Positions 10,310-28,861 are shown, numbered from the stretch's first letter. The stretch: DNA of 46,275 nt from Candidatus Sigynarchaeum calidifontis (GCA_030587475.2 JAUQYZ020000146.1:1-46275); one strand, 5' to 3'. Notes: generated by a model from the sequence alone, not told the origin. Made by a program: numbers and translations.

Positions 10310-10337
10310 GTGCGACCAACCTTTCCATTGAAAGAGA

Positions 10338-10520
10338 AAATCGGGCTAAATCGGGTTGAACGCGTCCGTTACAACCCTGGAAGTAGTTACATGAAATAAG
10401 CGTGCAAAAATATATTAATTTTTGCCGGCGATCTTGGGGGAGGTTCACCCGTGCAAGAATCGGGCCATTACTTTCGCCCCGATCTCGTGCCGGGTTGGCA
10501 TGGCCCGATTTTTGTTTTTT
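10338..10520. promoter_or_regulatory. Repeat/hairpin-rich upstream region of the giant gene (ATCGGG motifs, inverted repeat, AT-rich TATA-like tract)
   Basis: AAATCGGG at 10338 and 10348. Perfect inverted repeat AATCGGGCCAT (10458-10468) / ATGGCCCGATT (10500-10510). AAAATATATTAATTTT at about 10407-10422. Confidence 0.45.
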
Positions 10521-13350: not shown

Positions 13351-16300
13351 TCAAAGCTCCCCGGTCTTCAGTTTCTTTATCAATTCTTCCTTCCGCTGCT
13401 TTTCTTGCTCGAGCTCGGCGGCGAACTTTTGCACTTGGGTTATTTCCCTCGCCCATTTATCGCCGAGACCCTTGAAGATGTCGAGCGCCTGGTTCGCGAA
13501 TTCAACCGCCTTGAAAATCTTCTTGTCTCGCTGGTATTTCTTGGCCTCATCGATCAAGGCGAATGCCTTGTCGATCCGGGCTTGCTCGGTGCTCGCGGTG
13601 TCCGCGACCAGCTTTCTTGCCTGCTCGGCCTTGACCGTTTCCACTTGCTGCCGGATCATTGCGGCCTCCTTGGCCCAGCCGACTGATTCGAAAATGCCGA
13701 TTGCTTTCTCGTAACACGCGAGCGCATCCTCGATCTGCCTTTCCCGCAAGCATTTTTCGGCCTCGTTGATGGCATCGTATGCCAACTTCGTCTTGGCAGC
13801 CTCTTGCTGCTTGGAAACGTTTTGTTGCTCGTCATCGATCTCTTTCTGTACCTTCTTGATCTGGGAAACCACCGCTTCTTGCTCCCGGTTCCAACCGATG
13901 GACTTGAACTTTTCGATGGCCTTCTGGTACGCCTCGATGGCCTCCACGCGCTTTCCTGCCTTGTGCAACCGGTGTCCTTCGTCGATGATCTCGTACGCCT
14001 CATCGCCGATCAATTTCTCGCGCTGGCGCGGGCTCAAGGGTGTTTCGGCAGCTTCCGTCTTCTTGTCCTTGACAACGTCGGGAGCGCTTGTCCGGGCAAT
14101 AATCGACATGATCTCTTGCTCGCGCTTTGTTGCCTCGATCTTCGCGGCGCGTGCCCGTTCCTGGTCGCGCTTTTCTTGCGCGGCGACGATAAGATCCTTG
14201 ACGTCTTGGATCTGCGAGATCCAGTTCAATTCCTCGGCGATCGCGAGTGCTTCCTTGTAGACTCCCACCGCGCCATCATAATCGCGGTTCTTCATCAACT
14301 CTTGCGACTTCGCAAGCACGTCGAGATATTTCGCCTCGAGTGCCTTGATATGCCTTTTCTGCTCGATCGCTGCTTGTTTCTCCGCTTCGGACTGCTGCCG
14401 TTCTTGTTCTTGAACGAGACCCATCGTCTCGGATAGCTGCTCCACGCCACGGGTGTACGAACCCGTCTCGTCGACGGCGCGCTCGATCTTCATGAGCATC
14501 TTCTCGCGCTGCGCGCGCTTCTCCCGAATCATCTTGATCGTGTCGAGCACGGAGGCGGCCTCGTTCGCCCAGCCGTGCGCGACCATTAACGCGTGCGCCT
14601 TCTCGTACGCTTGCTCAGCTAGCGTCAGTTCCTCTTTCTTGAAGAACTTTAGCGCTTCATCGAGCGTGCGGTCGATTTCGTCCCTCGCTGCCTTCTCGGC
14701 TTTTTTCTTCTCTTCCAATTTCGTTGCAATAACATTTTCCCGCTGGAGCCGCTTGAGTGCAGCTGCCTGGCGCCCGTCAAGCTCCGTGGTCGTCTTGCCC
14801 TCGGCTTTTGCCTTCTCGACCTGTGATTGTTCGAACGCCTCCTTCTCGATGAGGAAATCTCGCTCTTTCTTTCGGAGAATTTCGATCGATTCCTCGATCT
14901 TGACGGCCTCGCTTATCCAGCCGGCCTCCTTGAAGAGGCCAAGCGCCTTCCGATAGAGGCGGATGATTTCCGGGTACTCGTTTTCCTTGAAGAGCTGGCC
15001 GCCGAGGATCTTGGGCTTCTTTTCGAAGTCATCCAGCGCCTTGCCGGCATCCTCGAGTGCCGAGAAAGCCGCATCGCGCTTCTGCTTTTGCTCCAGCTTT
15101 TTCTGCATTATCTCGGTCGACATCGCGTCGGCCTTGACTTGCGACGGCGGGGTGATGATGGGTTCCTTCGCCGCGGCATATTTGTCCTTGGATGCAGCGA
15201 GTTTCTTCGCAAGGGCCTCGACGCCGGCGTCGCGTTCTTTCTTGATGCCTTCCGCGGTAGCATTAACCTTCTCCGCCTCCGCTGTCCAGCCAGCCTCCAG
15301 GAATTTATCGCGTGCGTCCTGGTAAAGTTGGATCGACTCGTTGTAGCGCGCCCGTTTCGCATCCACCGATACGAAATTCGGGCTGCCGGCTTCTTTCAGC
15401 GCGAGGTTCGCCTTGTCAAGCAATGCCATTGCCTCGTCGATGATCGCCGTCTCCCTTGCCTTTTTCTCTTGAAGTGCTTTTATTCGCTCGGCTTCCTTTG
15501 CCTTCGCGGGTTCGATCTCTTGCTGCCGCTGGCTGATCGTCCTTTCCGTTTCCTCCTTGGCTTGCTGCTTGAGTTCCTCCCGCTTCTTCAATTCCTTGAT
15601 CCGAGCCTCGCATTGATTGATGGAATCCTCGACGACCCCGATTTCCCTGGTTGCACCGATTCCCTTGAGTTTCTGAAGGCTTTCCCGGTAGATTTTCAAG
15701 GCATCATCGTAATTCTTCTTCTTGAAAAGATCCGATGCACGTTCCATGAGATCGAGGGCCTCGTTGTAGACTTGTTTCTCGCGCGCTTTTTTCTCCTGGA
15801 TGGTGAGCTGCTGTTGCGATATCACTGCATGTTTTTTCTCCTTTTCGCGAGCATCGTTGATCAAGTCCTTGAGTATTACCACCTTGTCGGCCCATTTCAG
15901 CTCCTCGGCGACCGGGATGAGACTATTGTAGATCTGGATGCCCTCATTGAATCTCGCATCCGTGATGAACCTCGATGCCTTCTCCATTTCTTCGAGGAAA
16001 AACTGCTCCTTTTCTTCCGCCACCTTTTTCTTGACGAAATAATCGCCCAGGCCGGGACCCGACGATGTACCTTGCAGCTCCTTCTCCCGCTGGGCGAGGT
16101 ACTTTTCCTCTTCCTCTTTTGTCTTTTGCTTGAGCTCCTCCTTCATCTTCAAAGCTTTGATCTTGGCCTCGCACTGGTTGATCGATTCCTCGACGATCCC
16201 AATCTCCCGGGTTGCATCAATTTCCTTGAGCTTCGGAAGGCATTCCTTATAGGCAGCCAAGGCGTCCTCGTAATACTTCTTGTTAAAATATTCCGATGCA

Positions 16301-16623
16301 CGACCCATGAGGTCGAGGGCCTCGTTGTAAATGAGTTTCTCGCGGGCCTTCTTCTCCTGGAGGGTGAGCTTGAGCTGGGATTCGGCGGCGACTTTTTTCT
16401 CCTTCTCGCGAGCTTGGTAGATCAGGTCCTTGATCGTTGTCACCTTGTCTGCCCATTTCATTTCTTCGGCGACCGGGATGAGGCTCGTGTATAGCTGGAT
16501 ACCTTCCTCGAAGTTTGCTTCCTTGACGAGTTTCGATGCCTTCTCCATCTGTTCGAGGAAGAATTGCTCTTTTTCTTCTGTTAATTTCTTCTTTTCGAGG
16601 TATTCACCCAATTTTTCCGACAA
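13351..16623 (-). CDS. Large all-helical protein with about 11 TPR/MIT-like three-helix modules joined by charged coiled coils
   Basis: 1090 aa, E/K/A-rich, with a recurring pattern A..L...A......(Y/F)..A...Y..A...F...GW..EA..I. Confidence 0.85.
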   Translation of the reverse strand: MSEKLGEYLEKKKLTEEKEQFFLEQMEKASKLVKEANFEEGIQLYTSLIPVAEEMKWADKVTTIKDLIYQAREKEKKVAAESQLKLTLQEKKAREKLIYNEALDLMGRASEYFNKKYYEDALAAYKECLPKLKEIDATREIGIVEESINQCEAKIKALKMKEELKQKTKEEEEKYLAQREKELQGTSSGPGLGDYFVKKKVAEEKEQFFLEEMEKASRFITDARFNEGIQIYNSLIPVAEELKWADKVVILKDLINDAREKEKKHAVISQQQLTIQEKKAREKQVYNEALDLMERASDLFKKKNYDDALKIYRESLQKLKGIGATREIGVVEDSINQCEARIKELKKREELKQQAKEETERTISQRQQEIEPAKAKEAERIKALQEKKARETAIIDEAMALLDKANLALKEAGSPNFVSVDAKRARYNESIQLYQDARDKFLEAGWTAEAEKVNATAEGIKKERDAGVEALAKKLAASKDKYAAAKEPIITPPSQVKADAMSTEIMQKKLEQKQKRDAAFSALEDAGKALDDFEKKPKILGGQLFKENEYPEIIRLYRKALGLFKEAGWISEAVKIEESIEILRKKERDFLIEKEAFEQSQVEKAKAEGKTTTELDGRQAAALKRLQRENVIATKLEEKKKAEKAARDEIDRTLDEALKFFKKEELTLAEQAYEKAHALMVAHGWANEAASVLDTIKMIREKRAQREKMLMKIERAVDETGSYTRGVEQLSETMGLVQEQERQQSEAEKQAAIEQKRHIKALEAKYLDVLAKSQELMKNRDYDGAVGVYKEALAIAEELNWISQIQDVKDLIVAAQEKRDQERARAAKIEATKREQEIMSIIARTSAPDVVKDKKTEAAETPLSPRQREKLIGDEAYEIIDEGHRLHKAGKRVEAIEAYQKAIEKFKSIGWNREQEAVVSQIKKVQKEIDDEQQNVSKQQEAAKTKLAYDAINEAEKCLRERQIEDALACYEKAIGIFESVGWAKEAAMIRQQVETVKAEQARKLVADTASTEQARIDKAFALIDEAKKYQRDKKIFKAVEFANQALDIFKGLGDKWAREITQVQKFAAELEQEKQRKEELIKKLKTGEL
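15570..16610 (-). repeat. Internal tandem duplication with a 561-nt (187-aa) period in the helical-repeat gene
   Basis: GGCGACCGGGATGA at 15907 and 16468. EEKEQFFLE.MEKAS...LIPVAEE.KWADKV...QEKKAREK...ATREIG..E.SINQCEA.IK occurs twice. Confidence 0.9.
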
Positions 16624-16795: not shown

Positions 16796-18331
16796 ATGCA
16801 ACTCGACCTCATCATCAATCATTCGGACAAGTGGCGAGGTTTGAACGCGATCGACGTGCGGGTCAACCCGGCGCTGAAGGCGGGGGATTTCGGAGCTTTT
16901 TGGAAGAAAATGGTGGGCGTGGGGAGCGCGTTCTTGCTCCTCCGAAAGGATTTACTCGATCAAGTCGAGCAAGCGGTCAACGATATCGGTTTCGAGTATT
17001 TACGGTTCCACGGCATCTTGTCCGACGACGTTGGCCTCGTGCAGCAAGCCGACAAGGGCGCGGGGGAGATCGACGAGGATTGCTTGAATTTCACGAACGT
17101 CGACGCGATATACGACGCGCTCGCGGACATTGGCATCAAGCCCTTTGTAGAGCTATCCTTCATGCCCACCGAGCTCGCGAGCGGCACCACGCAAGTGTTC
17201 AAGTACCCATCCAACGTGACGCCGCCTGCGAGCTATCCCCTCTGGGGCTCGCTGGTACGGCATCTCGTGTCGCACTGGAAGGAAAGGTACGGCGCGGACG
17301 AGGTGCGGGACTGGTATTTCGAGGTCTGGAACGAACCGAACCTGAAAAACTTCTGGATGGGCACCATGAACGATTACTTCGCGCTCTACGACCACGCCGC
17401 GCGAGCGGTCAAGAGCGTTGATTCGCGGTTCAAGGTGGGCGGGCCCGCATCCGCGGCAGGGGGCTGGATCGCCCCGTTCCTGGAGCATTGCCAGGCCGCC
17501 GGCGCCCCCGTCGATTTCGTGAGCACGCACGTGTACCAGGTCGACGGCCCGAGGCGGGCGGCGGGCGAGTTGCCCTTTGCGGGTATGCGCCAGGTGATCG
17601 CGGGGGCAAGGGCGTCGATCGATGCCAGCGCCTTCCCCGAGCTGAAGCTACACGTGACCGAGTGGGGGTCGACGGTCAATCCATTCGATGCGGTGCACGA
17701 TTCATCGAACCAGGCTGCTTTCATCTGCAAGACCATCACGACCATGAACGGGCTCGTCGACTCGTTCTCGTACTGGACCGTCTCCGACATTTTCGAGGAG
17801 CTGGGCCTGCCTGACCGGGCGTTCCACGGGGGTTTCGGCATGAACACGCTGCACGGCGTGCACAAGCCCGCGTACAATGCCTTCAAGCTGGTAAACAGGC
17901 TCGGGCGGGAGATCTGCGAGGTGCAGCCCGCTCAACCTGGCTTGCCCAAGGGGGCGGAAGTATTCGCCACGAGAACGGCCTCGGAGGTGCGGGCATTGGC
18001 GTGGTACTACGTGCTGCAAGGCACGGCACCAGCACCGGAGCCGCTGAAAGTATCGTTAAGAGTGATGAAAGAGGCCCCCCTCGACGCGAGCGAGCTTGAT
18101 TTCTCGGTTCTCGAGCTGGGCAAACAAAAAGGCAATGCTTTCGAGGCGTGGAAGGCCATGGGATCGCCCCGGAACCCCTCGCCAGATCAAATCGACGATC
18201 TCAAGGATTCGGCCGAGCTCGGCGACGATGACGTCATGACCGGGGAAGCAAGCCAGGACGAGAAGCAGATGACGGTAAACATCACGCTGGAGCCAGAATC
18301 AGTGAAATTGATACGGATATTCAAGGCGTGA
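16796..18331 (+). CDS. GH39 family beta-xylosidase (XynB-like)
   Basis: LRFHGILSDD, KPFVELSFMP, acid/base FEVWNEPNL, DFVSTHVY, nucleophile HVTEW, SYWTVSDIFEE..FHGGFG. Confidence 0.92.
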   Translation: MQLDLIINHSDKWRGLNAIDVRVNPALKAGDFGAFWKKMVGVGSAFLLLRKDLLDQVEQAVNDIGFEYLRFHGILSDDVGLVQQADKGAGEIDEDCLNFTNVDAIYDALADIGIKPFVELSFMPTELASGTTQVFKYPSNVTPPASYPLWGSLVRHLVSHWKERYGADEVRDWYFEVWNEPNLKNFWMGTMNDYFALYDHAARAVKSVDSRFKVGGPASAAGGWIAPFLEHCQAAGAPVDFVSTHVYQVDGPRRAAGELPFAGMRQVIAGARASIDASAFPELKLHVTEWGSTVNPFDAVHDSSNQAAFICKTITTMNGLVDSFSYWTVSDIFEELGLPDRAFHGGFGMNTLHGVHKPAYNAFKLVNRLGREICEVQPAQPGLPKGAEVFATRTASEVRALAWYYVLQGTAPAPEPLKVSLRVMKEAPLDASELDFSVLELGKQKGNAFEAWKAMGSPRNPSPDQIDDLKDSAELGDDDVMTGEASQDEKQMTVNITLEPESVKLIRIFKA

Positions 18332-18338
18332 TAAGTAG

Positions 18339-18668
18339 TCAGTTGCTGGAGGAGTCGATCGATTTCAATATCCGCTCGGCCACCTTCCCCGTGTATTCGT
18401 CGTTCGCGCGCGTGAGCGGGGCATCATCGAGCATCTTGGAGAGGTGCTCGATCACCTCGACGTGATGCAGCCCGGTCAACGCCACGATTTTTTTCAAGGA
18501 AATCTTGCCGTCCTTGTACATTTGAGCCAAGACCGGAAAAAGAACCTAGTTTTTCCCCGCGTCGAGCAGATCCCTGGCGATGACCGATTTGGATACCTTC
18601 CGTTCCTCCGCGAGAAACGTGATGATGGCGTCCAGCGACTCGTCGATTCGAATGTTGATTTGAACCAT
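18339..18668 (-). pseudogene. RHH/UPF0175-like antitoxin interrupted by an in-frame TAG (18546-18548)
   Basis: One frame reads MVQINIRIDESLDAIITFLAEERKVSKSVIARDLLDAGKN*VLFPVLAQMYKDGKISLKKIVALTGL. The N-terminus is ribbon-helix-helix-like and the C-terminal YKDGKISL motif is UPF0175-like. Confidence 0.65.
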
Positions 18669-18837
18669 GATGATCAACTTGATACATGTTGTAACAATCG
18701 ATGGTGCCAGGGATATCATCAACAAACTCGGGGGTACCCTTGATATCGAGAAAGAAGCAGTAATCATGGCTAGACTCCACGATGAAGAAACCGCGGAGGT
18801 GTCTAATCGATGGCAAGCCTTAAAAACCAAGAGATGA
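18667..18837 (+). CDS. Short putative VapB-type antitoxin or antitoxin remnant (56 aa)
   Basis: MMINLIHVVTIDGARDIINKLGGTLDIEKEAVIMARLHDEETAEVSNRWQALKTKR*. Its stop overlaps the PIN gene start (ATGA at 18834-18837). Confidence 0.45.
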   Translation: MMINLIHVVTIDGARDIINKLGGTLDIEKEAVIMARLHDEETAEVSNRWQALKTKR

Positions 18838-19211
18838 CACCATATCTCCTCGATACAAACGCTATAATCAACTAGCTTCGCAAGACCGGCAAAAAGGAGA
18901 TCAATCACGAGTTTTTGACAACCATTGTCACTGCAATCGAGTTCCCCGTGGTCATTACCTTTCCTAAGGCCTCGCTTATCATGCCCTCGCACGACATGTA
19001 CGCGAAAAGTATCGAATACGCGGCCAAGTTACGAGAAAAAGGATCACCCATCCCCGCGATCGACGTCATCATCGCAACCATCGCGGTAAAAAAGGATGCC
19101 ATCCGGGTTTCCGACGACGACCATTATGCATCGTTCCATACGATCGAACCGGGTCTAAAGAGAATCGGCCTGGAAGCCTTCCTTTCCAGAAATATCAATC
19201 CGGAAGAATAA
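18834..19211 (+). pseudogene. vapC: VapC-like PIN-domain toxin with an in-frame TAG at codon 14 (18873-18875)
   Basis: MTPYLLDTNAIIN*LRK...TTIVTAIEF...KLREKGSPIPAIDVIIATIA...VSDDDHY. All PIN motifs lie in one frame across the TAG. Confidence 0.8.
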
Positions 19212-19414: not shown

Positions 19415-20092
19415 ATGCTATTCGGTTTCTTCAAGAAAAAGGACAAGAAGGAAATGAAAGAAGCCCCGAAATTCAGATGTTCTAAATGCGGGGCAGAAAA
19501 CCCGGCAGAAGCGAAATTTTGCTTGAGTTGCGGGGCCGATATGGCGGGCCAGCGAGCTGCGATGAGCAAAACAGCCGAGGCGGATCGAATCACCGATGAT
19601 TTCAAGGATAAAGGTGGTTTCTGGCAAAAAATCATCCCCGGCTATCATGGTTACAAGCAGAAGGAGCTCAGGCGGGAATCGGACAAGCTCGTTCGTGATC
19701 AACTCGTCAAGATGCTTCAAGGTGCGAAGAAGGACATAACGGCCATCCAAGAGGAGGCCGTGTCGTCCGCGCCCGACCTGGTCCCGAAACTCGAGGACAT
19801 GCTGACCGAGTTCGACACGTTCCTCAAGAAAATACAATACGCCGATTACGGCATGGGCGGGCTGTTCGACTCGGAAAAGATCAAGGAACCCGAGCTGGAG
19901 AAGCTCATCGCGTTCGACAAGAGCATGATCGAGACCGTCATGAGCCTCCAGGCGGGCATCAAGGAGCTTGGCGGGGGCTTGACCGAGGACGGGGCAGATA
20001 AGATCAAGCAGCTGCGATCGTTCATCAAGGACGCGATCAAGTACTACGCGCAGCGGGACGAGTACATCCGCGGCTGGAAGCCCACCACCTGA
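19415..20092 (+). CDS. Double-Zn-ribbon plus helical-bundle protein of unknown function, SPFH-associated
   Basis: MLFGFFKKK N-terminus, CSKCGAENPAEAKFCLSCGA, then a helical domain IPGYHGYKQKELRRESDKLVR...ADYGMGGLFD...LEKLIAFDKSM. Confidence 0.8.
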   Translation: MLFGFFKKKDKKEMKEAPKFRCSKCGAENPAEAKFCLSCGADMAGQRAAMSKTAEADRITDDFKDKGGFWQKIIPGYHGYKQKELRRESDKLVRDQLVKMLQGAKKDITAIQEEAVSSAPDLVPKLEDMLTEFDTFLKKIQYADYGMGGLFDSEKIKEPELEKLIAFDKSMIETVMSLQAGIKELGGGLTEDGADKIKQLRSFIKDAIKYYAQRDEYIRGWKPTT

Positions 20093-20131
20093 CACGAGGA
20101 GTTCGCTAGAGCTTAGAGAGTAAATGAATAG

Positions 20132-21133
20132 GTGAAAGACATGTTCGGAAGAGAAGTCGTTGAATGGAAGAATCCAAAGAAAGAAGACATCATGTACAAG
20201 TACCCCGACGAGAGGCTATCCTGGGGTGCCACGATCATCGTCAAGGAGAACCAGTGGGCGGTGTTCTTCAGGGATGGGAAGGCCTATGACGTGTTTTCGG
20301 CTGGGCGCCACGTGATCAGCACCGCCGACGTGCCGCTGCTCGGCAAGATCATCAAGAGCGTCACGGGAAACGTGTTCCAGGCCAACGTGATCTTCGTCAG
20401 CAAGGCGCAGTTCGACGGGAAGTTCGGTGGCCAGGGCCAGACGCAGGAACTCGCCCCGCTCAAGTTCAACGGGCAGTACTGGTTCAAGGTCCAGGATCCC
20501 CAGATCTTCGTCAACGAGATTTGCGGCAACCAGTCGGTCTTCACGAGCGACGCGGTGAACGAATACCTGCGCGGCTACTTCAACGAGCACTTGATCGACA
20601 CGCTCAGTGGCTACACGCTGCGGGCAGTCTACGGCAAGCTCGACGAGACCTCGCTCAGCTGCAAGGTCAAGCTACGAAAGGACTTCGAACGCATCGGGCT
20701 CGAGCTCGTCGACTTGAAGTTCATGAAGATCGACACGGACGAGAAATACCGCGAGCGGTTGTTCTTCATGCAAACCGGCGGCGTCGGCGCGGCTGGCGTG
20801 CTGGAAGCCGAGACCCGCAAGGGCATGGCCGAATCCCTCGGCAAGTCGCCCGGCGCGGCCATGGGCGCGGGCATGATGATGATGGGCCCCGGCGGCATGG
20901 CCCAGCCCGGCTTCGTGGGATCAGCAGGCGGAGGGGTCGCCATGCGCTCTTGCCAGAAGTGCGGCGCTCAATCGCCCGCGACGAGCAAGTTCTGCAACAA
21001 TTGTGGAGCACCCTTCCCCAGCGAGGCCCCTGCCGAGGGCGGTGGAGCCGCTGCTCCAAAATTCTGCCCGGAATGTGGCTCCAAGACAGGGGGGGCAAAA
21101 TTCTGCCCAGAATGCGGGAAAAAACTCGTGTAA
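20132..21133 (+). CDS. SPFH/band-7 domain protein (YdjI-like) with C-terminal Zn ribbons
   Basis: IIVKENQWAVFFRDGK..F.AGRH, FNGQYWFKVQDPQIF, FERIGLELVDL, a Gly/Met-rich GAAMGAGMMMMG segment, then CQKC..CNNC and CPEC..CPEC. Confidence 0.9.
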   Translation: MKDMFGREVVEWKNPKKEDIMYKYPDERLSWGATIIVKENQWAVFFRDGKAYDVFSAGRHVISTADVPLLGKIIKSVTGNVFQANVIFVSKAQFDGKFGGQGQTQELAPLKFNGQYWFKVQDPQIFVNEICGNQSVFTSDAVNEYLRGYFNEHLIDTLSGYTLRAVYGKLDETSLSCKVKLRKDFERIGLELVDLKFMKIDTDEKYRERLFFMQTGGVGAAGVLEAETRKGMAESLGKSPGAAMGAGMMMMGPGGMAQPGFVGSAGGGVAMRSCQKCGAQSPATSKFCNNCGAPFPSEAPAEGGGAAAPKFCPECGSKTGGAKFCPECGKKLV

Positions 21134-21153
21134 GCCAGGTTCTATCAGCACCT

Positions 21154-21180
21154 ATTTCTTTTTCTTGTTTTCCTTGTTCT
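21154..21180 (+). terminator. Oligo-T archaeal terminator after the SPFH gene
   Basis: ATTTCTTTTTCTTGTTTTCCTTGTTCT starts 21 nt after the TAA. Confidence 0.5.
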
Positions 21181-21377
21181 GAAAGCGACTGGCAAGTTTT
21201 CTCCAAGGATCCGGGTCAAAAATATAATGAAATGAAACGTGTCATTACTTCGATAGATTTTTACATTAGGGCCGACTTCAATATCGATGGAAACCGACAA
21301 GTTATAGTAAATCTCGACGTGTTACTTTGAAGGGGAGACTGATTCTTCACCGAAATCCCGATCTTGATGAAAAATTA

Positions 21378-22190
21378 TCAAATATCAATACCGTGGTCTT
21401 TCAGAAGCCGCTCGAGCTTTTCAGCACGAGCCTTCTCCTGGTCAGCACGAGCCTTCTCCTGGTCAGCACGAGCCTTCTCCTGGTCAGCGCGGGCCATTTC
21501 TTTCTCGAGACGCGTCGGTAGTCGACTTGCCGAATCTTTTCTTACGAGGATCAGCCGGTATCGAGGCTGGGTCTTCTCGTGCTTGCCCTCCAGCTGCTCG
21601 ATCCCGAACCGAAACGGGATGGACGCTCCCACGTCGATGAGTTCTGCCACGATGATCCGCCCGGTCTCGTCCACGCACGAGTTCCGTCGCTCTTCTATCT
21701 TGTATGATCCATCATCTTGCAATTGGTAAACCCTCACGAACGGGGGACGGTAAAATTTCGTCGCTACATCAAACGGGGCAAATACCACGTAGACCGGGAC
21801 GCGAAGCAGTCGACAGATGTCGAGGTTCTCGCTTAGATCTGCCCTCCACGTGCTTTTAGACATGATGTTGACCACGAGCGCCGGGATCCGGTTTTGATGG
21901 TCGATTGCGCGGTAAGAAGACAATGTATACGAGATCGAGAAATCGAGGAAAAACGAGATGTCGAATTGGACGTCGATCTCATCATCATCATGTTGAAAAT
22001 AATGGTGCAGATCGAGCAAAGCGTGATGTTGGGGAAAATTTGTCGTGAGAACATCGTGCAAATAGGCGACCTCGAGGGAATGCGGCTCGCTTTCACGCCT
22101 GCCTATCCGTGGGTGGGCTTGATCGAACATGTCCGGTTCCATGGAATTGATACGCGTGGATTTGAACGGGGCGGTGCCGTCTTGGGTCAT
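21378..22190 (-). CDS. Uma2 (DUF820)-like PD-(D/E)xK fold protein with a C-terminal EKARADQ coiled-coil repeat
   Basis: ESEPH...L...DLHHYF...QFDI...PALVVNIMSKSTWRADL...LRVPVYVVFAP follows the Uma2 pattern. The tail reads RLPTRLEKEMARADQEKARADQEKARADQEKARAEKLERLLKDHGI. Confidence 0.75.
   Translation of the reverse strand: MTQDGTAPFKSTRINSMEPDMFDQAHPRIGRRESEPHSLEVAYLHDVLTTNFPQHHALLDLHHYFQHDDDEIDVQFDISFFLDFSISYTLSSYRAIDHQNRIPALVVNIMSKSTWRADLSENLDICRLLRVPVYVVFAPFDVATKFYRPPFVRVYQLQDDGSYKIEERRNSCVDETGRIIVAELIDVGASIPFRFGIEQLEGKHEKTQPRYRLILVRKDSASRLPTRLEKEMARADQEKARADQEKARADQEKARAEKLERLLKDHGIDI
21421..21488. repeat. Perfect 21-bp coding tandem repeat, 3 copies plus a partial copy
   Basis: TCAGCACGAGCCTTCTCCTGG at 21421, 21442 and 21463, then TCAGC. 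Encodes heptad EKARADQ-type repeats on the minus strand. Confidence 0.95.
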
Positions 22191-22655
22191 TGCTGGTTGC
22201 CTCCGAAATCGAGATCGCTGTTTTCACACATCCAATACCAATCGACCTATTAATAGGCCGATGGTGAATCATTCAAAATCGAGCAACGGCTCAATTGCCA
22301 CCAAGCACCATCAACACGATCGACGCTATTCATTCAGGTCCAGAAGCTCATATCAGGACCAGACGGCACCAGTACGGATACTTGCCATGAAATAGCGGAC
22401 GCACGCGTTCATCTAAGGAGTGCATTGCGTGGAGGAAACAAGATCAAGATTATATTCTTCCCCTAGATGCATATCACGAAGCATGCTTGCCGCGGCATGC
22501 GGTTTTGCCAATCAATCTTGCGGAACCGCTGCCAGAAGGGGCAAGTGAACTTATAAATTCTCGCACGCGCTGATGATATTTGGGTTCGCCGGTGCGAGAA
22601 GGGTTCGTAACTTGTCTCGCAAGAAGAACGTGAATGCACGGTAGAACACGACGAG

Positions 22656-23228
22656 GTGATCTCGATGACCGCCCCGATGCTGTGGGACAAGACATACAAG
22701 TTCATATGGGGAGGAGAAGGCGGTGTCGGCAAGACCACGCTGCTCCAGCGGTTCATGTACGACGAGTTCAACCCCGCCACGCCGCTCACGGTCGGCGTCG
22801 CCTTTAACACGTGTGCTGTCGAGCGCCAGGGACGCAATATCGGGCTCGCCCTCTGGGATCTCGGCGGGCAAGAGCGATTCAGGTTCATCCAGAGCATATA
22901 CATGGAAAAATCGAACGCTGCTTTCGTCGTGTTCGACATGTCGAACCTGGGCACCCTGGGCCAGGTTCCCGACTGGACCAAGATGATCCGGCAATACAAC
23001 GACCCCAACATCCCCATCGTGCTCGTGGGCACGAAGATGGATCTCGTGCCGAACGAGGACCTGGAGAACATCCACGCCATCGCGAACCAGACCGTCGCCG
23101 ATAACGGCATGTATTGCTACGCGCCGACGTCCGCGAAGCTCAGGCTCAACGTGGACGAGATCATCTACTACATGATCGACTTGATCTTGTACCAGGAATA
23201 TTACAACGCGCCTCAAGCGCAAGTTTGA
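22656..23228 (+). CDS. Rab-like small GTPase (Ras superfamily)
   Basis: G1 GEGGVGKT, G2/RabF1-like LTVGVAF, G3 LWDLGGQERFRFI, VVFDMS, G4 variant GTKMD, G5 TSAK. No C-terminal Cys motif. Confidence 0.93.
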   Translation: MISMTAPMLWDKTYKFIWGGEGGVGKTTLLQRFMYDEFNPATPLTVGVAFNTCAVERQGRNIGLALWDLGGQERFRFIQSIYMEKSNAAFVVFDMSNLGTLGQVPDWTKMIRQYNDPNIPIVLVGTKMDLVPNEDLENIHAIANQTVADNGMYCYAPTSAKLRLNVDEIIYYMIDLILYQEYYNAPQAQV

Positions 23229-23400
23229 CCACGACGCTCGACCGGTTCACTTGCACTGGCAGCCGGATTTCTACCCGCCTTGCCATGCCAGAACGCTGTC
23301 CGAAGGTTCTGGTTTTGCTCGGAAGCACTTATGTTAACTTTAATACCACATGGCCATATGTGTTATCCGTATGGTGCTTTGAACCTATACAGTGATTCAC

Positions 23401-24504
23401 ATGGCTGCTGAAGGAGAACAGAGCTTGGTTCGCAAGTGCCCGACTTGCGGGGCGACCATCACCGTTTCGCCAGAGGATCTGGTGATCACGTGCAAGTTTT
23501 GCGGCGAAACGATGGAGGCAGGGGGGAACAAGATCCCTGACCACAAGATGCTTCCCTCGCAAGAACGCTCGGCGATCCATGCCAACATACAAGATTTCTT
23601 GAAAAAGAACAAGATAAAGCAAGGTGCCTCAATCGAGGAGGTCAAGGCCTCGTACATTCCATGGTGGATCGTGCCGTTCACGTCCCAGACCCATTACTAC
23701 GGGGTCCTGAACAGCACGGTGACCCGCCAGAAGACCGAGACTTACAGGGACGCCGAGGGCAAGACCCGGACGAGAACCGTGAGTTATTCGGTGCCCGTGT
23801 ACAAGCCCGAGGAAGGCGATTTCTCGCGCAGCGGCAGGGAAAACGTGATCGCCCGCAAGCACACGGTCTTCTACGGTTTCGACAAGTTCGCGTCAACAAT
23901 TTTTTTAGACAACATCGAACCCTTCGACTTCCAGAAGGTCAAGAGGCACGATGCCGAGTTCATCAACGCCGAGGTGAACGCGCGCGAGGCCCAGCAAGAA
24001 GCCTACGGCCGGGTGGAGAACGAGAACCGCTCCATCGCCGCGAGCAAGGTAAGCAAGCTCGTGCGTTGCGATTCGAAAGTCACGCTGCAATACCCGACCT
24101 ACGTGCACGCGCCGCTCTGGACGGCTCGCTACAAGTTCCAGGGCAAGATCTACAAGGTGAGCGTGGCGGGCGACAGTGGAAAGGTCGTCAAGGGGGAGGT
24201 CCCGCTCACGCTCGGTAGGCGTCTCACGAACTTGATCATCGGGCTCGTCATCATGGTCGTGGGCGGCATCGTGGCGCAGATCGGCTACCAAAATGCGCTG
24301 ATTCCGGACAACGAGATGTGGATCGTTGTAATGGTTTTTGGTTTGGTCGCGATGGTGATCAGCTTTATATTCACTTCGACCGCCTTCCGCATGCAGCTGG
24401 AGAAGTCGGACAAGATCAGCAAACCACCGAAGAAGAAGGCAGCGCCCGCCGCGGCGCAAGCCGCGACACAGGCACCGGCACCGGCGCCGCAACCGGAGGC
24501 ATGA
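23401..24504 (+). CDS. YdjG-like Zn-ribbon protein with 2 C-terminal TM helices (paralogue 1)
   Basis: CPTCGA..CKFCG, YIPWW, APLWTARYKFQGKIYKVSVAGDSGKVVKGEVP, then two hydrophobic helices. GTG 23392 is an alternative start. Confidence 0.8.
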   Translation: MAAEGEQSLVRKCPTCGATITVSPEDLVITCKFCGETMEAGGNKIPDHKMLPSQERSAIHANIQDFLKKNKIKQGASIEEVKASYIPWWIVPFTSQTHYYGVLNSTVTRQKTETYRDAEGKTRTRTVSYSVPVYKPEEGDFSRSGRENVIARKHTVFYGFDKFASTIFLDNIEPFDFQKVKRHDAEFINAEVNAREAQQEAYGRVENENRSIAASKVSKLVRCDSKVTLQYPTYVHAPLWTARYKFQGKIYKVSVAGDSGKVVKGEVPLTLGRRLTNLIIGLVIMVVGGIVAQIGYQNALIPDNEMWIVVMVFGLVAMVISFIFTSTAFRMQLEKSDKISKPPKKKAAPAAAQAATQAPAPAPQPEA

Positions 24505-25529
24505 TCGAGATGGTCAAAGTCACATGTCCAAACTGCGCGGCCGATCTCGACGTGGCCACGGATGCCCCGATCCACACGTGCGATTTCTGCGGTACCGCGA
24601 TACAAGTCAGCGCGATATTCGGCGGCGAGGGGGTGGCGGCGGGTGGAGCCAAGGAAAGCTTCATCATCAAGGATCACTTCATCATCCGCTGCCACTACAA
24701 CCAGGACCAGGTCAAGAACTTGCTCGTCGACTGGGTGAAAAAGATCCCGGGCGCGCCGCAAGACTTCGAGGAATCTGCCAACATCAACGAGATCAAGCTG
24801 AAGTTTTACCCGATCTGGGTCGGCGAGTACGCCGTGACGTCGGATTACGTTGGCATCGATGACTGGCCGAACTTCAGCCACCCCGCGCCCGACAGGCCCG
24901 GCTGGTTCGAGCATGTATCATATAGCCCGAGACAAGAGTCCGGCCGCGTCATTCGCGAGTACCAGATCCCGCTCATTGCCCTGCCCGAGCAGCGCATACC
25001 GGTCTACCTGCGCGACTACGCCGTGACGACCACCGGAAAGGAATATTTCGATATCAAGCACGTGAAGATGCTCAGCGGCGAAATAATCGATTCCGCGCTG
25101 AAGATGAATGAAGCCAAGGCGAACATGAACCAGCAAGTCATCGACCGGCAGACCCGCGAGATGCACAAGGAGGTCAAGCAAATCCAGAGCCGCAACGACG
25201 CGATCGAGGAAAAGGGCGTGTATTACATCCATTTTCCCGTGTACCATATAAGCTTCGTATACAACGGGAAGCAGCATGACGCTCTCATCGATGGCTCTTC
25301 CGGCCGCATCATCAACGTCAAGGTTCCCATGAGCACGGAATTCAAGGCAAAGGCCACGGGTGGGGGGCTCGCAGCCATCGGCATCGGTGCAGCGCTGATC
25401 ATCATGGGACTCCTCTTGCCGACACTTATGCTCGTCGCTGGCATCGCGATCGGCGCGTGCACGATCGTCGTCGGTATCTTGATCTTCTCGCTCCTTACGC
25501 GCAAGCAGGTCTCCGAAAAACAACGATGA
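24501..25529 (+). CDS. YdjG-like Zn-ribbon protein with 2 C-terminal TM helices (paralogue 2)
   Basis: The start overlaps the upstream stop (ATGA 24501-24504). CPNCAA..CDFCG, FYPIW, FPVYHISFVYNGKQHDALIDGSSGRIINVKVP, two TM helices. Confidence 0.8.
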   Translation: MIEMVKVTCPNCAADLDVATDAPIHTCDFCGTAIQVSAIFGGEGVAAGGAKESFIIKDHFIIRCHYNQDQVKNLLVDWVKKIPGAPQDFEESANINEIKLKFYPIWVGEYAVTSDYVGIDDWPNFSHPAPDRPGWFEHVSYSPRQESGRVIREYQIPLIALPEQRIPVYLRDYAVTTTGKEYFDIKHVKMLSGEIIDSALKMNEAKANMNQQVIDRQTREMHKEVKQIQSRNDAIEEKGVYYIHFPVYHISFVYNGKQHDALIDGSSGRIINVKVPMSTEFKAKATGGGLAAIGIGAALIIMGLLLPTLMLVAGIAIGACTIVVGILIFSLLTRKQVSEKQR

Positions 25530-25555: not shown

Positions 25556-27688
25556 CTACTTGAATTTCTTTATTTTTTCCCTGATCTCCTTGATTTTTTC
25601 GGCGATCTTGTCCATCTCGGCCTTGAGATCGGCGAGCTTTTGTTCGTAGGTGGGTTGCTTGATGATGCCCTTGTCGAGGTCGGTCCGGAGATCCTTGCGG
25701 GCGCGCTCGATGGCATATCGCTTGCCCTCCAAGGCGATGAGCGCCTGGTAGAGCCCGTCCTTGGTGTCGGGCAGCGCCTCGATGTCCACGTCGGAACCGA
25801 TCGGCGTTGCGGGCCGTGGCTGCATAGTTGCGGCCTTCCCCGCACCCTGTCCTGGTACGACGGTGGAAGCTTTTGCATCGACCATGCCACCAGGACGGAA
25901 CAGCGAAAGGCTCGACCCCTGCGTGGATGCCTTCCGATCGCCCCGCTTGCTATCAAGACCGCCCATGAACAGGCTCATCGAGTCGACAGGCCCCGGCTCG
26001 ACCGCTTGCCCCGTTTTCTTGATCTCCTGGAGGCGCGATTTCTTCGGCTCCTTGTCCATCACGTCGACCGAGATCTTGCTGCTCGCCTCTTTTTCCCCGT
26101 CGGGTTCGGGGGTTTTGACCGGGCGCTTGAACGTGACAGGCCCCGCCCCTTGGTCATCTTTTACCGCCTTTGTTGGCACGTCCGACACGCTGCTGTCCAT
26201 CGCCTCGTCCAAGATCGACGAGATCTTGTCGTCATCCCACGATTCTGCTGCGTCGAGAGCCTCTATAACGTCTTTCTTCGTCGTCGCTCCAGCCTTGGCG
26301 GGTTTCAAAGGAATTGCAGGTTGCACGTTATCATCTGCGCTCCACGCGTCGATCTCCTCTGGCGACACCTCCATTGGTGTAATGTATTCGTCCTCGACGG
26401 GTGCTGCCTTCGGAATGGCGGCTGGAGCTTTTTGTGCCTTGGCTTTATTCTCGTCCAGACGTTGGGCAACTCTTTCGACGACGTCCTCGACAATCTCGTC
26501 GTTCGGATCCTTGGGGACGGCCTTGCCAATTTGGATTTTTACCGGGATAGGCTTGACGACCCGTGGAGGAGGGGTTTTTGCGAGTACGGGACCCTCGATC
26601 ACGTCCATTTCCGAGAACAAGGCACCTCCCTCCCCTGGAGATTCTGGCGGGGCCTCGGGCGCACTTTTTTCTTGCGTGTTTTCGCCGAGTTCATTATCGA
26701 GATTTATGTTATCGAGATCAGGCACGAGGATCTTGATGGGTTTTGGAATGAGGAGTGGTTTCTCGGTGCTCGAAGGTTTTGGCGAAATTGATTGGATGGG
26801 TTTGGCTGCAAAAGCTGTTTGCTTGGTGCTGATTGCTGGCACCGCGAGTTTGGCTTGCGGTTCCTCCTTTTCGGAAGTCTTCTCTACGACTTGTGAGGGT
26901 GTTTGCACGGCCATGATGGGCTTGATGAGCTTGACCGGTTTCACGCGGATCTCGAGCTTTTTCTCTTCGACGAGGGCCTTGAGTGGCACCGGGGACGAGG
27001 TCTCGTCGATAACGGGTGTTTCGATACTTTTCAGTGCCCCCGTCGGGGATGGTGCCGCTACGGACGCGGCGGGCGTGGCATTCCCTGCAGTGGCCGGCAC
27101 CTTCACGGGAGGGATCTTGAACACGGGCTTGAGCACGGGCACGGTTCTCTCCCTCGGCACCGCTGATGAACCCATATCCGATTCGATGCTCGCCGGCGGT
27201 TTTACATCAGATGGCATGGCGGGTATCGATGGTGGCGCGGGTTTTTGGGGTGATGCCCCGAGGACAATTGGCTTCAACAACGACGTCGCGATCGGCTTGG
27301 CTGGCGGGGCGATGCCGGGCTTTTCTTGTGGCGTGGATGCCGTGGGCTTTTCAACGGGCTTTTGAGCCTTCGGAAGGATCCCCGAGTTCTCGGCGAACGA
27401 CGTGAAATTGGTCATGAAACCCTTGATCTTGGCAACAAGATCCTTCATTTCCTTGAACCAGTACGCGTAAACATCCCATTCGCCTAAAAGCTTTAATATA
27501 TCCTTCACATCAGCCTGAATTCCATTTGGAGCCTTCAGCTTGACGAGAAAGTCAGACATCGCAGTGAAATTGTTCGTGAAGTCCTTTTTTTTCTTGAGTT
27601 CTGCGTCCGTGTCGAGGTCCTTTTCAAGGCACGCTTTTACATCGGTTTCAAGCTGCTTGAAAAGTGCCAGGACCGATTCGCGTTCCAC
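25556..27688 (-). CDS. 710-aa protein: helical N-domain, long Pro/Lys/Ala-rich disordered linker, C-terminal steadiness-box (Vps23 core)-like helical hairpin
   Basis: Low-complexity centre. C-terminus DVDIEALPDTKDGLYQALIALEGKRYAIERARKDLRTDLDKGIIKQPTYEQKLADL. The CDS is solid, while the domain call rests on my manual alignment. Confidence 0.75.
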   Translation of the reverse strand: MERESVLALFKQLETDVKACLEKDLDTDAELKKKKDFTNNFTAMSDFLVKLKAPNGIQADVKDILKLLGEWDVYAYWFKEMKDLVAKIKGFMTNFTSFAENSGILPKAQKPVEKPTASTPQEKPGIAPPAKPIATSLLKPIVLGASPQKPAPPSIPAMPSDVKPPASIESDMGSSAVPRERTVPVLKPVFKIPPVKVPATAGNATPAASVAAPSPTGALKSIETPVIDETSSPVPLKALVEEKKLEIRVKPVKLIKPIMAVQTPSQVVEKTSEKEEPQAKLAVPAISTKQTAFAAKPIQSISPKPSSTEKPLLIPKPIKILVPDLDNINLDNELGENTQEKSAPEAPPESPGEGGALFSEMDVIEGPVLAKTPPPRVVKPIPVKIQIGKAVPKDPNDEIVEDVVERVAQRLDENKAKAQKAPAAIPKAAPVEDEYITPMEVSPEEIDAWSADDNVQPAIPLKPAKAGATTKKDVIEALDAAESWDDDKISSILDEAMDSSVSDVPTKAVKDDQGAGPVTFKRPVKTPEPDGEKEASSKISVDVMDKEPKKSRLQEIKKTGQAVEPGPVDSMSLFMGGLDSKRGDRKASTQGSSLSLFRPGGMVDAKASTVVPGQGAGKAATMQPRPATPIGSDVDIEALPDTKDGLYQALIALEGKRYAIERARKDLRTDLDKGIIKQPTYEQKLADLKAEMDKIAEKIKEIREKIKKFK

Positions 27689-27855: not shown

Positions 27856-28311
27856 ATGCCCGACGAGTTCAACTTTGATGACATTGACAAGATGCTGGCA
27901 CCCATCGACAAGGAAGCGAACAAAGCAGAAATGATCGCGAAACTTAACGCGGCATTTGCAAGTGGCGCAACCCCCTTCATTGATTACACCCAGAGCTATG
28001 TCTATCTTGTTTTTCCAACACCGGATGGCAAGGAATGGAACGAACTCTCGTTCATCCGCGAGGATGGAAATTTAACCAAGTCAAAACAGGATCCGGAAAC
28101 GGCGGTTCATGATATCAAGGAAGAAATTGTCCGTGGCTTGTCAGAAGTTACCGATATAAACGTGAACCAGATCACCAGCATTGCTACGACTTATGCCAAG
28201 GATCCCAAATCGTTCATCGCCGAGATGATCAAGATCCTTCCCCCGAGCGCCCCGGTGCTGCGCAGCCAGGCCGATCTCCCGAAAGTCATCGACATGGTAA
28301 AAAGCGCATAA
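27856..28311 (+). CDS. Hypothetical protein
   Basis: 151-aa ATG ORF with globular composition, divergent from the 710-aa gene and followed by a T-rich tract. Confidence 0.7.
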   Translation: MPDEFNFDDIDKMLAPIDKEANKAEMIAKLNAAFASGATPFIDYTQSYVYLVFPTPDGKEWNELSFIREDGNLTKSKQDPETAVHDIKEEIVRGLSEVTDINVNQITSIATTYAKDPKSFIAEMIKILPPSAPVLRSQADLPKVIDMVKSA

Positions 28312-28354: not shown

Positions 28355-28861
28355 GTGATGCCATCGTGGTGGCAAAAACGAGTGGAGTTTGAAGCAACAA
28401 TGGTCGAGATAGAACCGATCGATGCACAGTTTAGGAAAATCAAGCGTCGCTTCGACGAGGACCCGAAAGACTGGCGTGTCCTCTCGGATATCGACCCGCG
28501 AGGCAATAAAGACATGTTCATCAGCCAGCGGGAAGATCTCTGGCAGATCAAGACCAAGCCCTTAAGCCCCATCACGGGTATCGCCCGGTCGTGTCATATA
28601 CGCAATTTAGACGAGGAAATCCAGCGTGAGATTCGCGCGCGAGGCATGGACGGGGAAAAATACCTTTTTTCCATGATGATCCCGCAATCGCGTAACGAGG
28701 CTTTGTTCGCGACCGGCATCGAGAGTTTTGCCAACTCGAAATCAAAAAGGCTCAAGGAAATGTTAAGCGAGAAGGAAAAGCATCTCGAAAAAGACCTCGC
28801 GGACGACGTGGAAAAAACCTTCGAGAAACAGCAAGCTCAGCGGCGCAATCTATTCATTTAA
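28355..28861 (+). CDS. Hypothetical protein
   Basis: 168-aa ORF co-oriented with its neighbours (DPKDWRVLSD...LWQIKTKP). The start may be the later ATG (MVEIEP). Confidence 0.7.
   Translation: MMPSWWQKRVEFEATMVEIEPIDAQFRKIKRRFDEDPKDWRVLSDIDPRGNKDMFISQREDLWQIKTKPLSPITGIARSCHIRNLDEEIQREIRARGMDGEKYLFSMMIPQSRNEALFATGIESFANSKSKRLKEMLSEKEKHLEKDLADDVEKTFEKQQAQRRNLFI

Follow-up and report, generated by a model that had tools for sequence, protein, structure and literature searches.

A six-gene locus at positions 19415–25529 of a 46,275-nucleotide (nt) stretch of Candidatus Sigynarchaeum calidifontis DNA (GCA_030587475.2, JAUQYZ020000146.1:1–46275; the whole stretch is hereafter the window) is probably a lokiarchaeal form of the widespread YdjI/YdjG (SamI/SamG) membrane-scaffold module, formed by two dyads, with a Uma2-like gene and a Rab-like GTPase gene lying outside the core. 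The conserved unit is these two dyads: a helical zinc-ribbon protein (G1) with an SPFH protein, and a pair of YdjG-like membrane proteins (G5 and G6). The scaffold-plus-anchor pair is conserved in Asgard archaea, cultured Promethearchaeum syntrophicum MK-D1 included, and in Thermoproteota without PspA; its anchor is duplicated and it is accompanied by an unstudied helical partner. An original prediction, made from the window sequence, had named the six genes and proposed a membrane module under small-GTPase control. All six open reading frames (ORFs) are found where it placed them, with the domains it described (Pfam); we have moved the start codons of the GTPase, G5 and G6, and G1 has one zinc ribbon, not two.

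Synteny of the two dyads

We compared 20 distinct loci, the window included, each of which extends 2 kb or more upstream of a G5 orthologue of 42% identity or higher; G001 is of the same genus as the window genome, G002 of the same family, and G021 is P. syntrophicum MK-D1. G5 and G6 are adjacent in every orthologous locus and also in Thermofilum L051 and L052. The SPFH gene adjoins the pair in six related loci (G002, where the SPFH stop codon lies 200 nt from G5, G021/MK-D1, G019, G009, G013 and L048) and lies no more than 6 kb away in seven more, making 13 loci with the window counted. G1 homologues stand immediately 5′ of the SPFH gene in L023, L032, L047, L048, L065, L070 and the P0020 contig, and the G1–SPFH dyad precedes the G5–G6 pair in L023, L032, L047, L048, L070 and the P0020 contig. 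Other genes split the dyads in L032 (a 1273-residue TPR protein and two more genes, minus strand), in the P0020 contig (two AsnC-like genes) and in L047 (a 191-residue gene without a family), and a 1.9-kb gap does so in L070. Because G005 holds G1–SPFH on one contig and G5–G6 on another, the dyads appear to act as units. Among 41 relatives, a strong Band_7_1 match occurs in nine genomes, eight of which also carry G5; in the ninth genome with G5 a contig begins at that gene, so that any SPFH gene upstream of it would have been out of view. The module and several flanking genes are stably syntenic, and identity drops with taxonomic distance, as vertical inheritance predicts.

The arrangement extends to Thermofilum, where L051 carries, in order, a G5 homologue (397 residues), its paralogue (292 residues), a G1-like 172-residue protein and an SPFH protein with Band_7_1 and a double ribbon. 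The Lokiarchaeia order is helical protein, SPFH, pair, whereas that of Thermofilum is pair, helical protein, SPFH. The L052 contig has a YdjG-like paralogue pair without an SPFH gene beside it, and a G1 homologue 3.4 kb downstream of the pair.

The SPFH protein and its helical partner

The SPFH gene (20132–21133, plus strand) matches Band_7_1 (PF13421, E = 2.5e-21, 76.7 bits against a 24-bit cut-off) and Band_7 (PF01145, E = 2.1e-17). A low-complexity Gly/Ala/Met-rich linker leads to two C-terminal zinc ribbons (DZR and Zn_Ribbon_1 matches at residues 274–329; Cys 274/277/288/291 and 312/315/325/328). No 19-residue segment reaches a Kyte–Doolittle value of 1.6, that is, no membrane segment is predicted. 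Published work describes YdjI as soluble, with a Band-7 domain and a C-terminal zinc finger, and as dependent on YdjG/YdjH for reaching the membrane (PMC9239133, PMC11237479, PMC8581546); since Band_7_1, two zinc ribbons and the lack of a hydrophobic segment correspond to the published YdjI architecture (PMC8581546; PMC11237479), we assign the window protein, on its predicted domain make-up, to a soluble YdjI type, in contrast to FloA/FloT, which have a membrane anchor of their own. It is the sole strong Band_7_1 match in its genome and is 46% identical to the Thermofilum SPFH protein that adjoins the YdjG-like pair; a PDB sequence search with it gave no match.

G1 (19415–20092, plus strand) ends 39 nt upstream of the SPFH gene, the two together making the first dyad. 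It encodes a soluble protein of 225 residues, with one zinc ribbon (Cys 22, 25, 36 and 39; Pfam Zn_Ribbon_1, E = 1.4e-8) followed by an all-helical, four-helix domain, and hydropathy identifies no hydrophobic segment. The AlphaFold2 (AF2) model (predicted local distance difference test, pLDDT, 77) comprises the ribbon and a four-helix bundle, in which helices 77–118 and 120–141 form a long hairpin. The family has no Pfam model of its own, and G1 matches NCBIfam LIMLP_15305 with E = 7e-12, far under that family's cut-off. The 172-residue Thermofilum L051 protein is a G1 homologue (tblastn E = 2e-22) whose gene overlaps the SPFH start, and look-alike clusters of about 165–183 residues, without a Pfam family, occur in Chloroflexota, Acidobacteriota, Bathyarchaeota and Methanobacteriota. 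Because homologues adjoin the SPFH gene across Lokiarchaeia loci and in Thermofilum, sequence comparison points to G1 as a conserved partner of YdjI-type SPFH proteins, from an uncharacterised family.

The YdjG-like pair

G5 (ORF 23392–24504, likely start ATG 23401, plus strand) and G6 (ORF 24498–25529, likely start ATG 24501, plus strand) encode the YdjG-like membrane anchors A and B, neither with a Pfam family, which are distant paralogues of one another (BLASTP E = 1e-13, 20% identity). Each has one N-terminal CxxC-x14-CxxC zinc ribbon, and there is a weak PF08271 match, which has also been reported for YdjG. Hydropathy finds hydrophobic segments among the locus proteins solely at their C termini (residues 269–331 of G5 and 285–335 of G6), and together with the AF2 model predicts two transmembrane helices per paralogue; the cytoplasmic tails are positively charged. 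In the sequence a single ATGA contains both the end of the G5 stop codon and the G6 start, and GGAGG lies just 5′ of it, so that the translational coupling proposed in the original prediction is plausible.

The G5 model (pLDDT 84) runs from the zinc ribbon through a helix, a β-hairpin, a helical stretch and a helix packed on a four-stranded sheet to the two transmembrane helices. Its long β-hairpin (residues 80–153, window positions about 23638–23859) consists of one strand of about 40 residues and one of about 29, with a tip that is charged and rich in Thr and Arg; were G5 oligomeric, such modelled hairpins could join into a cytoplasmic sheet or barrel. Foldseek against the PDB returned nothing at E ≤ 1e-3, and the weak rows at E of about 0.01, to stems of β-pore-forming toxins, arise from the long β-hairpin alone. 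A PDB sequence search with the G5 profile gave no match, and a VIA wide search with the whole model was uninformative on the central domain, its match list being taken up by the transmembrane hairpin. The whole-model searches thus matched nothing to the central domain, whose counterpart in YdjG has an NTF2/YpeB-like fold. A shape search of the ESM Atlas, in turn, found similarly built clusters in Thermoproteota, Bathyarchaeota, Bdellovibrionota, Chloroflexota and Bacillota (TM-score 0.53–0.64), the Bacillota clusters having PF08271 in 15% of members.

Close relatives of G5 number about 60, nearly all of them labelled as Lokiarchaeia or as Asgard lineages allied to these; DSAG12_01089 is the P. 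syntrophicum MK-D1 orthologue. A family profile built from 23 of the relatives was run against 1.84 billion proteins and retrieved 2192 cluster representatives at E ≤ 1e-3, of which 377 reached E ≤ 1e-10, with members in Lachnospiraceae, Thermofilum and Cyanobacteriota. The Lachnospiraceae homologue (400 residues, two ribbons, weak PF08271 match) is encoded between a PspA_IM30 gene and a Band_7_1 plus zinc-ribbon gene, an arrangement equivalent to pspA-ydjG-ydjI without ydjH. Alignment of the G5 profile to this protein with hhalign (probability 99.5%, E = 3.8e-22, 251 columns) covers the ribbon, the long hairpin and the C-terminal α+β part. YdjG itself is described as combining zinc ribbons (Pfam TF_Zn_Ribbon) and a transmembrane segment with a central domain that is uncharacterised (PMC9239133, PMC11237479, PMC8581546). 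The term YdjG-like holds because a member of the G5 family sits between pspA and a YdjI-type gene in Lachnospiraceae. A tandem G5–G5–G6 arrangement is seen in L059 (8732–12028, Freyarchaeota chromosome CP147778.1), with no SPFH gene within 8.7 kb upstream or 9 kb downstream.

Absence of PspA and TPM

The original prediction saw no PspA or TPM gene at the locus, and this extends to the whole 89%-complete, 4.99-Mb genome, in which neither PspA (PF04012) nor TPM (PF04536, YdjH) finds a match; among 22 relatives no PspA match exceeds the cut-off. The genome has four Snf7-family (ESCRT-III) genes, all on other contigs. The reading, in the original prediction, of the SPFH and zinc-ribbon/transmembrane genes as a YdjI/YdjG-type module lacking PspA and TPM is borne out by the hhalign result and by the synteny in Lokiarchaeia and Thermofilum.

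The junction between the dyads

Between SPFH and G5 the locus is variable. In the window this junction (21134–23400) contains the Uma2-like gene (21378–22190, minus strand), which matches PF05685 over 64 residues with 22.8 bits, under the 27-bit cut-off (E = 7e-5), and whose product ends in three tandem EKARADQ heptads and a short helical tail (21378–21500, minus strand). The gene is missing from every related locus and has three paralogues elsewhere in its own genome (49–68% identity). In the other loci of the genus, the interval from SPFH to the GTPase is occupied by a DUF3782/PD-(D/E)XK gene and two others (G001), a Polbeta/HepT toxin–antitoxin pair and a PLDc_2 nuclease (L030), or PIN and PLDc_2 genes (L028), the PLDc_2 nucleases being of about 600 residues; the L032 junction holds the TPR protein described above. 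The corresponding junctions span L020 8975–11797, L028 1–5820, L030 1217–6020 and L032 2205–8000. Because this cargo is different in every genome it is not a fixed partner, and the Uma2-like gene is variable cargo outside the module. The SPFH–G5 junction thus acts as an insertion hot spot with defence-island-like cargo. The closest Uma2-like paralogue in the genome is co-oriented with, and about 200 nt downstream of, a Snf7/ESCRT-III match (C165:10419–10919 and C165:11132–11851).

A T-rich tract noted in the original prediction is present 3′ of the SPFH stop codon (21150–21185, plus strand), read from the sequence as a candidate archaeal oligo-T terminator; in L022–L025 similar runs of T come after the SPFH gene. 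Further downstream, a TATA-like motif (AACTTTAATA, 23336–23345, plus strand) lies about 55 nt 5′ of the G5 start. The motif, AACTTTAAWA / ACTTTAAAA, with a function inferred from its sequence, occurs upstream of G5 in the window, G001, L028 and L032, the last of which has no GTPase gene. Since it is kept with or without the GTPase, the G5–G6 pair most likely has its own (predicted) promoter. The original prediction carried the caveat that the locus may give more than one transcript. A scan for sigma-70 promoters and hairpin terminators, which is not applicable to archaea, stayed at background level.

The Rab-like GTPase

The GTPase gene (ORF 22656–23228 from GTG 22656, likely start ATG 22665, plus strand) encodes a 187-residue protein that matches Ras (PF00071, E = 2.6e-36) and whose best 60 PDB matches are all Rabs (top E = 8e-27). 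Its motifs GGEGGVGKT, DLGGQ, TKMD (G4) and TSAK are conserved among orthologues, and it has no C-terminal Cys (the protein ends ...YYNAPQAQV, with Cys only at 50 and 151), so no prenylation site. Such features recall the Asgard Rab-like GTPases, which are numerous, without prenylation sites and generally not in operons with regulators (Tran et al. 2024, PMC10933270).

The gene is present in four of the 20 loci (the window, G001, L028 and L030/L031, equivalent to L068), in all of which G5 is at least 82% identical to that of the window. It is missing from the other 16, where G5 is at most 71% identical and which include same-family genomes. In these the dyads are contiguous (G002, G021/MK-D1, G019, G009, G013 and L048), split by genes (L032, P0020, L047 and L070), or without an SPFH gene near the pair (G005, L049, L056, L059, L069 and L071). 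Among the reference genomes only G001 has an orthologue (87% identity); the next-best matches are paralogues of 53–56% identity on other contigs (in G002 the best is 55%, likewise on another contig), and the closest of them neighbour a sialidase-like BNR gene, a hydrolase, DUF362 and a TIM-barrel gene. The GTPase is therefore most likely a recent, genus-specific insertion that arrived in the ancestor of the genus, not a conserved part of the module. The part of the original prediction that placed the module under small-GTPase control finds no support in this comparison: the absence from relatives that was to count against it is largely what the loci show, only genus-level relatives carry the gene, its paralogues lie in unrelated contexts, and in the window it shares the junction with the Uma2-like gene.

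Other GTPase genes were seen near related loci. The G003 chromosome (same family) has G1–SPFH but no G5/G6 detected nearby; 5.4 kb upstream of G1, its opposite strand encodes a Ras-like paralogue of 45% identity (L064, 2734–3243, minus strand), probably by chance, given dozens of paralogues per genome. A DRG/Obg-type GTPase (MMR_HSR1 plus TGS), a different class and probably a housekeeping neighbour, is encoded directly 3′ of G6 in a 62%-identity relative (P0020 contig, 9254–10390). The 191-residue gene in the SPFH–G5 gap of L047, considered as a divergent GTPase, has no Pfam match and no tblastn match to the GTPase.

Proposed mechanism and alternatives

In Bacillus subtilis, YdjG and YdjH recruit soluble YdjI to the membrane (PMC8581546, PMC13713150). 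By analogy, G5 and G6, with their large zinc-ribbon-headed cytoplasmic domains and a C-terminal helical hairpin that is predicted to anchor each of them in the membrane, may together be a heteromeric receptor to which the SPFH protein docks on the inner membrane face, where it could oligomerize into a sub-membrane scaffold; G1 would travel with the SPFH protein as an adaptor or effector, in the place of PspA. The Uma2-like gene and the GTPase would be occupants of a variable insertion site between the dyads, outside this core.

Several observations weigh against this reading. Pairs occur with no SPFH gene close by in L049, L059 and L071, and also in L056 and L069, where the upstream sequence spans 3.1 and 2.0 kb; dependence of G5–G6 on the SPFH protein is therefore not absolute. 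The assignment to YdjG is indirect, resting on the pspA-linked Clostridia homologue and on published domain descriptions, not on the B. subtilis YdjG sequence; a search with the Lachnospiraceae protein gave 1700 relatives, the best 120 of which (49–91% identity) include none named YdjG. YdjG of B. subtilis has two zinc ribbons and one transmembrane segment (PMC11237479), whereas G5 and G6 each have one ribbon and a predicted two helices. The B. subtilis mechanism may not transfer, because the PspA and TPM partners are absent here. Finally, the GTPase and G5 remain adjacent in all four genus loci while their surroundings change, which is compatible with an acquired functional linkage.

This last point bears on a genus-restricted form of control, in which the GTPase, lacking a lipid anchor, would use the YdjG-like anchors or the SPFH scaffold in a GTP/GDP switch. 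The gene is on the same strand as, and immediately upstream of, G5 in all four genus loci despite their differing cargo, and is under purifying selection (87–97% identity, all G motifs intact). It has neither a C-terminal Cys nor a hydrophobic segment, so any membrane association would require a partner; the wider group of Asgard Rab-like GTPases likewise lacks prenylation sites (PMC10933270). We nonetheless consider such control unlikely, in view of its absence from 16 of 20 loci, the unrelated contexts of the closest paralogues and the TATA-like motif of G5 itself. In L030, about 800 nt and two small ORFs separate the GTPase from G5. The four loci, being close kin, amount to roughly one evolutionary event, and the 63 Ras-family matches in this genome give, by our arithmetic, roughly an 8% chance of one in any 6-kb stretch. 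Complex prediction of the GTPase with the cytoplasmic parts of G5 and G6 (score 0.02, mark 0.32) speaks neither for nor against binding. Genuine functional coupling of any kind between GTPase and module is accordingly a slim prospect, and its most specific version, recruitment within the genus of an anchorless GTPase that takes the YdjG-like anchors as its membrane receptor and whose GTP state switches SPFH scaffold assembly, is more doubtful again.

The gathering at the junction of a Polbeta/HepT pair, PIN and PLDc_2 nucleases, a PD-(D/E)XK-like gene and Uma2 raises the thought of a conflict or defence system, in which an SPFH scaffold with zinc-ribbon membrane sensors would trigger, or guard against, viral membrane damage and to which this cargo would be related. 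We regard this as very improbable: the cargo differs in every genome, PADLOC gives no significant match (a single weak one, E = 2e-4, covers the G5 zinc-ribbon region), and the module with its flanks is stably syntenic, with identity tracking taxonomic distance. It is no more credible that G1 is a cryptic PspA/ESCRT-III analogue, polymerizing on damaged membrane after SPFH recruitment to complete a Psp-like repair system. The G1 gene does indeed come just before the SPFH gene, its product is helical and includes a long hairpin, and it is a near-constant partner in the loci examined. Alignment of the G1 family to a PspA with hhalign, however, gives a probability of 0.2%, and fold searches match only generic helical bundles (IncA, designed repeat proteins) at Z 10–11, inside the stated noise range of the tool for helical models; Snf7-family proteins are moreover already encoded elsewhere in the genome. 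G1 as a structural substitute for PspA is thus unsupported, and the two-dyad YdjI/YdjG-type module is the reading that we retain.

Flanking genes

Flanks were compared with L047, L048, L032, L028, L030 and L026. Four window genes are kept with the module at family level (13351–16623, minus strand; 25556–27688, minus strand; 27856–28311, plus strand; 28355–28861, plus strand); the more distant family of MK-D1 and relatives lacks them. A divergently oriented TPR-like gene of 1020–1090 residues lies upstream of G1 in L047 and L048; in the window, a glycoside-hydrolase-like gene and toxin–antitoxin remnants (16796–19211) are inserted between the TPR-like gene and G1. On the 3′ side of G6, six loci have a disordered protein of about 700 residues (minus strand) and two proteins of about 150 residues.

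Implications and comparison with known systems

To our knowledge, YdjI/YdjG (SamI/SamG) have so far been studied only in Bacillus, as a membrane receptor for PspA, and a literature search found no printed description of a PspA-free archaeal YdjI/YdjG module or of the G1 family. The pattern described here suggests that the SPFH/YdjG core is an older, self-sufficient unit whose effectors are interchangeable, and gives Asgard cell biology a concrete, testable membrane-scaffold module. It also urges caution in reading function into the many neighbourhoods of Rab-like GTPases, because the window copy is most likely a genus-level insertion at a fast-turnover junction. If GTPase switching of an SPFH assembly were nevertheless true, GTPase-specified membrane microdomains would have a prokaryotic precedent.

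As with other Asgard Rab-like GTPases (PMC10933270), the window protein has a Ras-superfamily fold nearest to eukaryotic Rabs, has no C-terminal prenylation Cys and is one of dozens of paralogues; it differs in being fixed beside a YdjG-like pair in one genus and in its G4 motif, TKMD rather than NKxD. The archaeal 'Meth_adaptin' ESCRT loci (Makarova et al. 2024, PMC10936438) share an SPFH protein with zinc ribbons, a proposed partner of membrane-remodelling machinery, whereas the window locus is without ESCRT-III, Vps4, ESCRT-II and the adaptin-appendage gene. Relative to the Thermofilum-type archaeal module, the lokiarchaeal form has a helical protein with an N-terminal zinc ribbon and dyads parted by a variable insertion site. 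The closest characterized counterpart is B. subtilis pspA-ydjGHI (pspA-samGHI; PMC8581546, PMC13713150, PMC11237479). Both place a soluble Band_7_1 SPFH protein with C-terminal zinc ribbon(s) beside YdjG-type membrane protein(s), and the archaeal anchors would presumably recruit the SPFH protein as those of B. subtilis do. The archaeal locus departs from it in having neither PspA nor TPM/YdjH, in locus or genome; in the doubling of the YdjG-like gene into a coupled paralogue pair; in a zinc-ribbon/four-helix G1 upstream of the SPFH gene; and in its organization as two separable dyads, probably two units of transcription, around a variable junction rather than as one operon.

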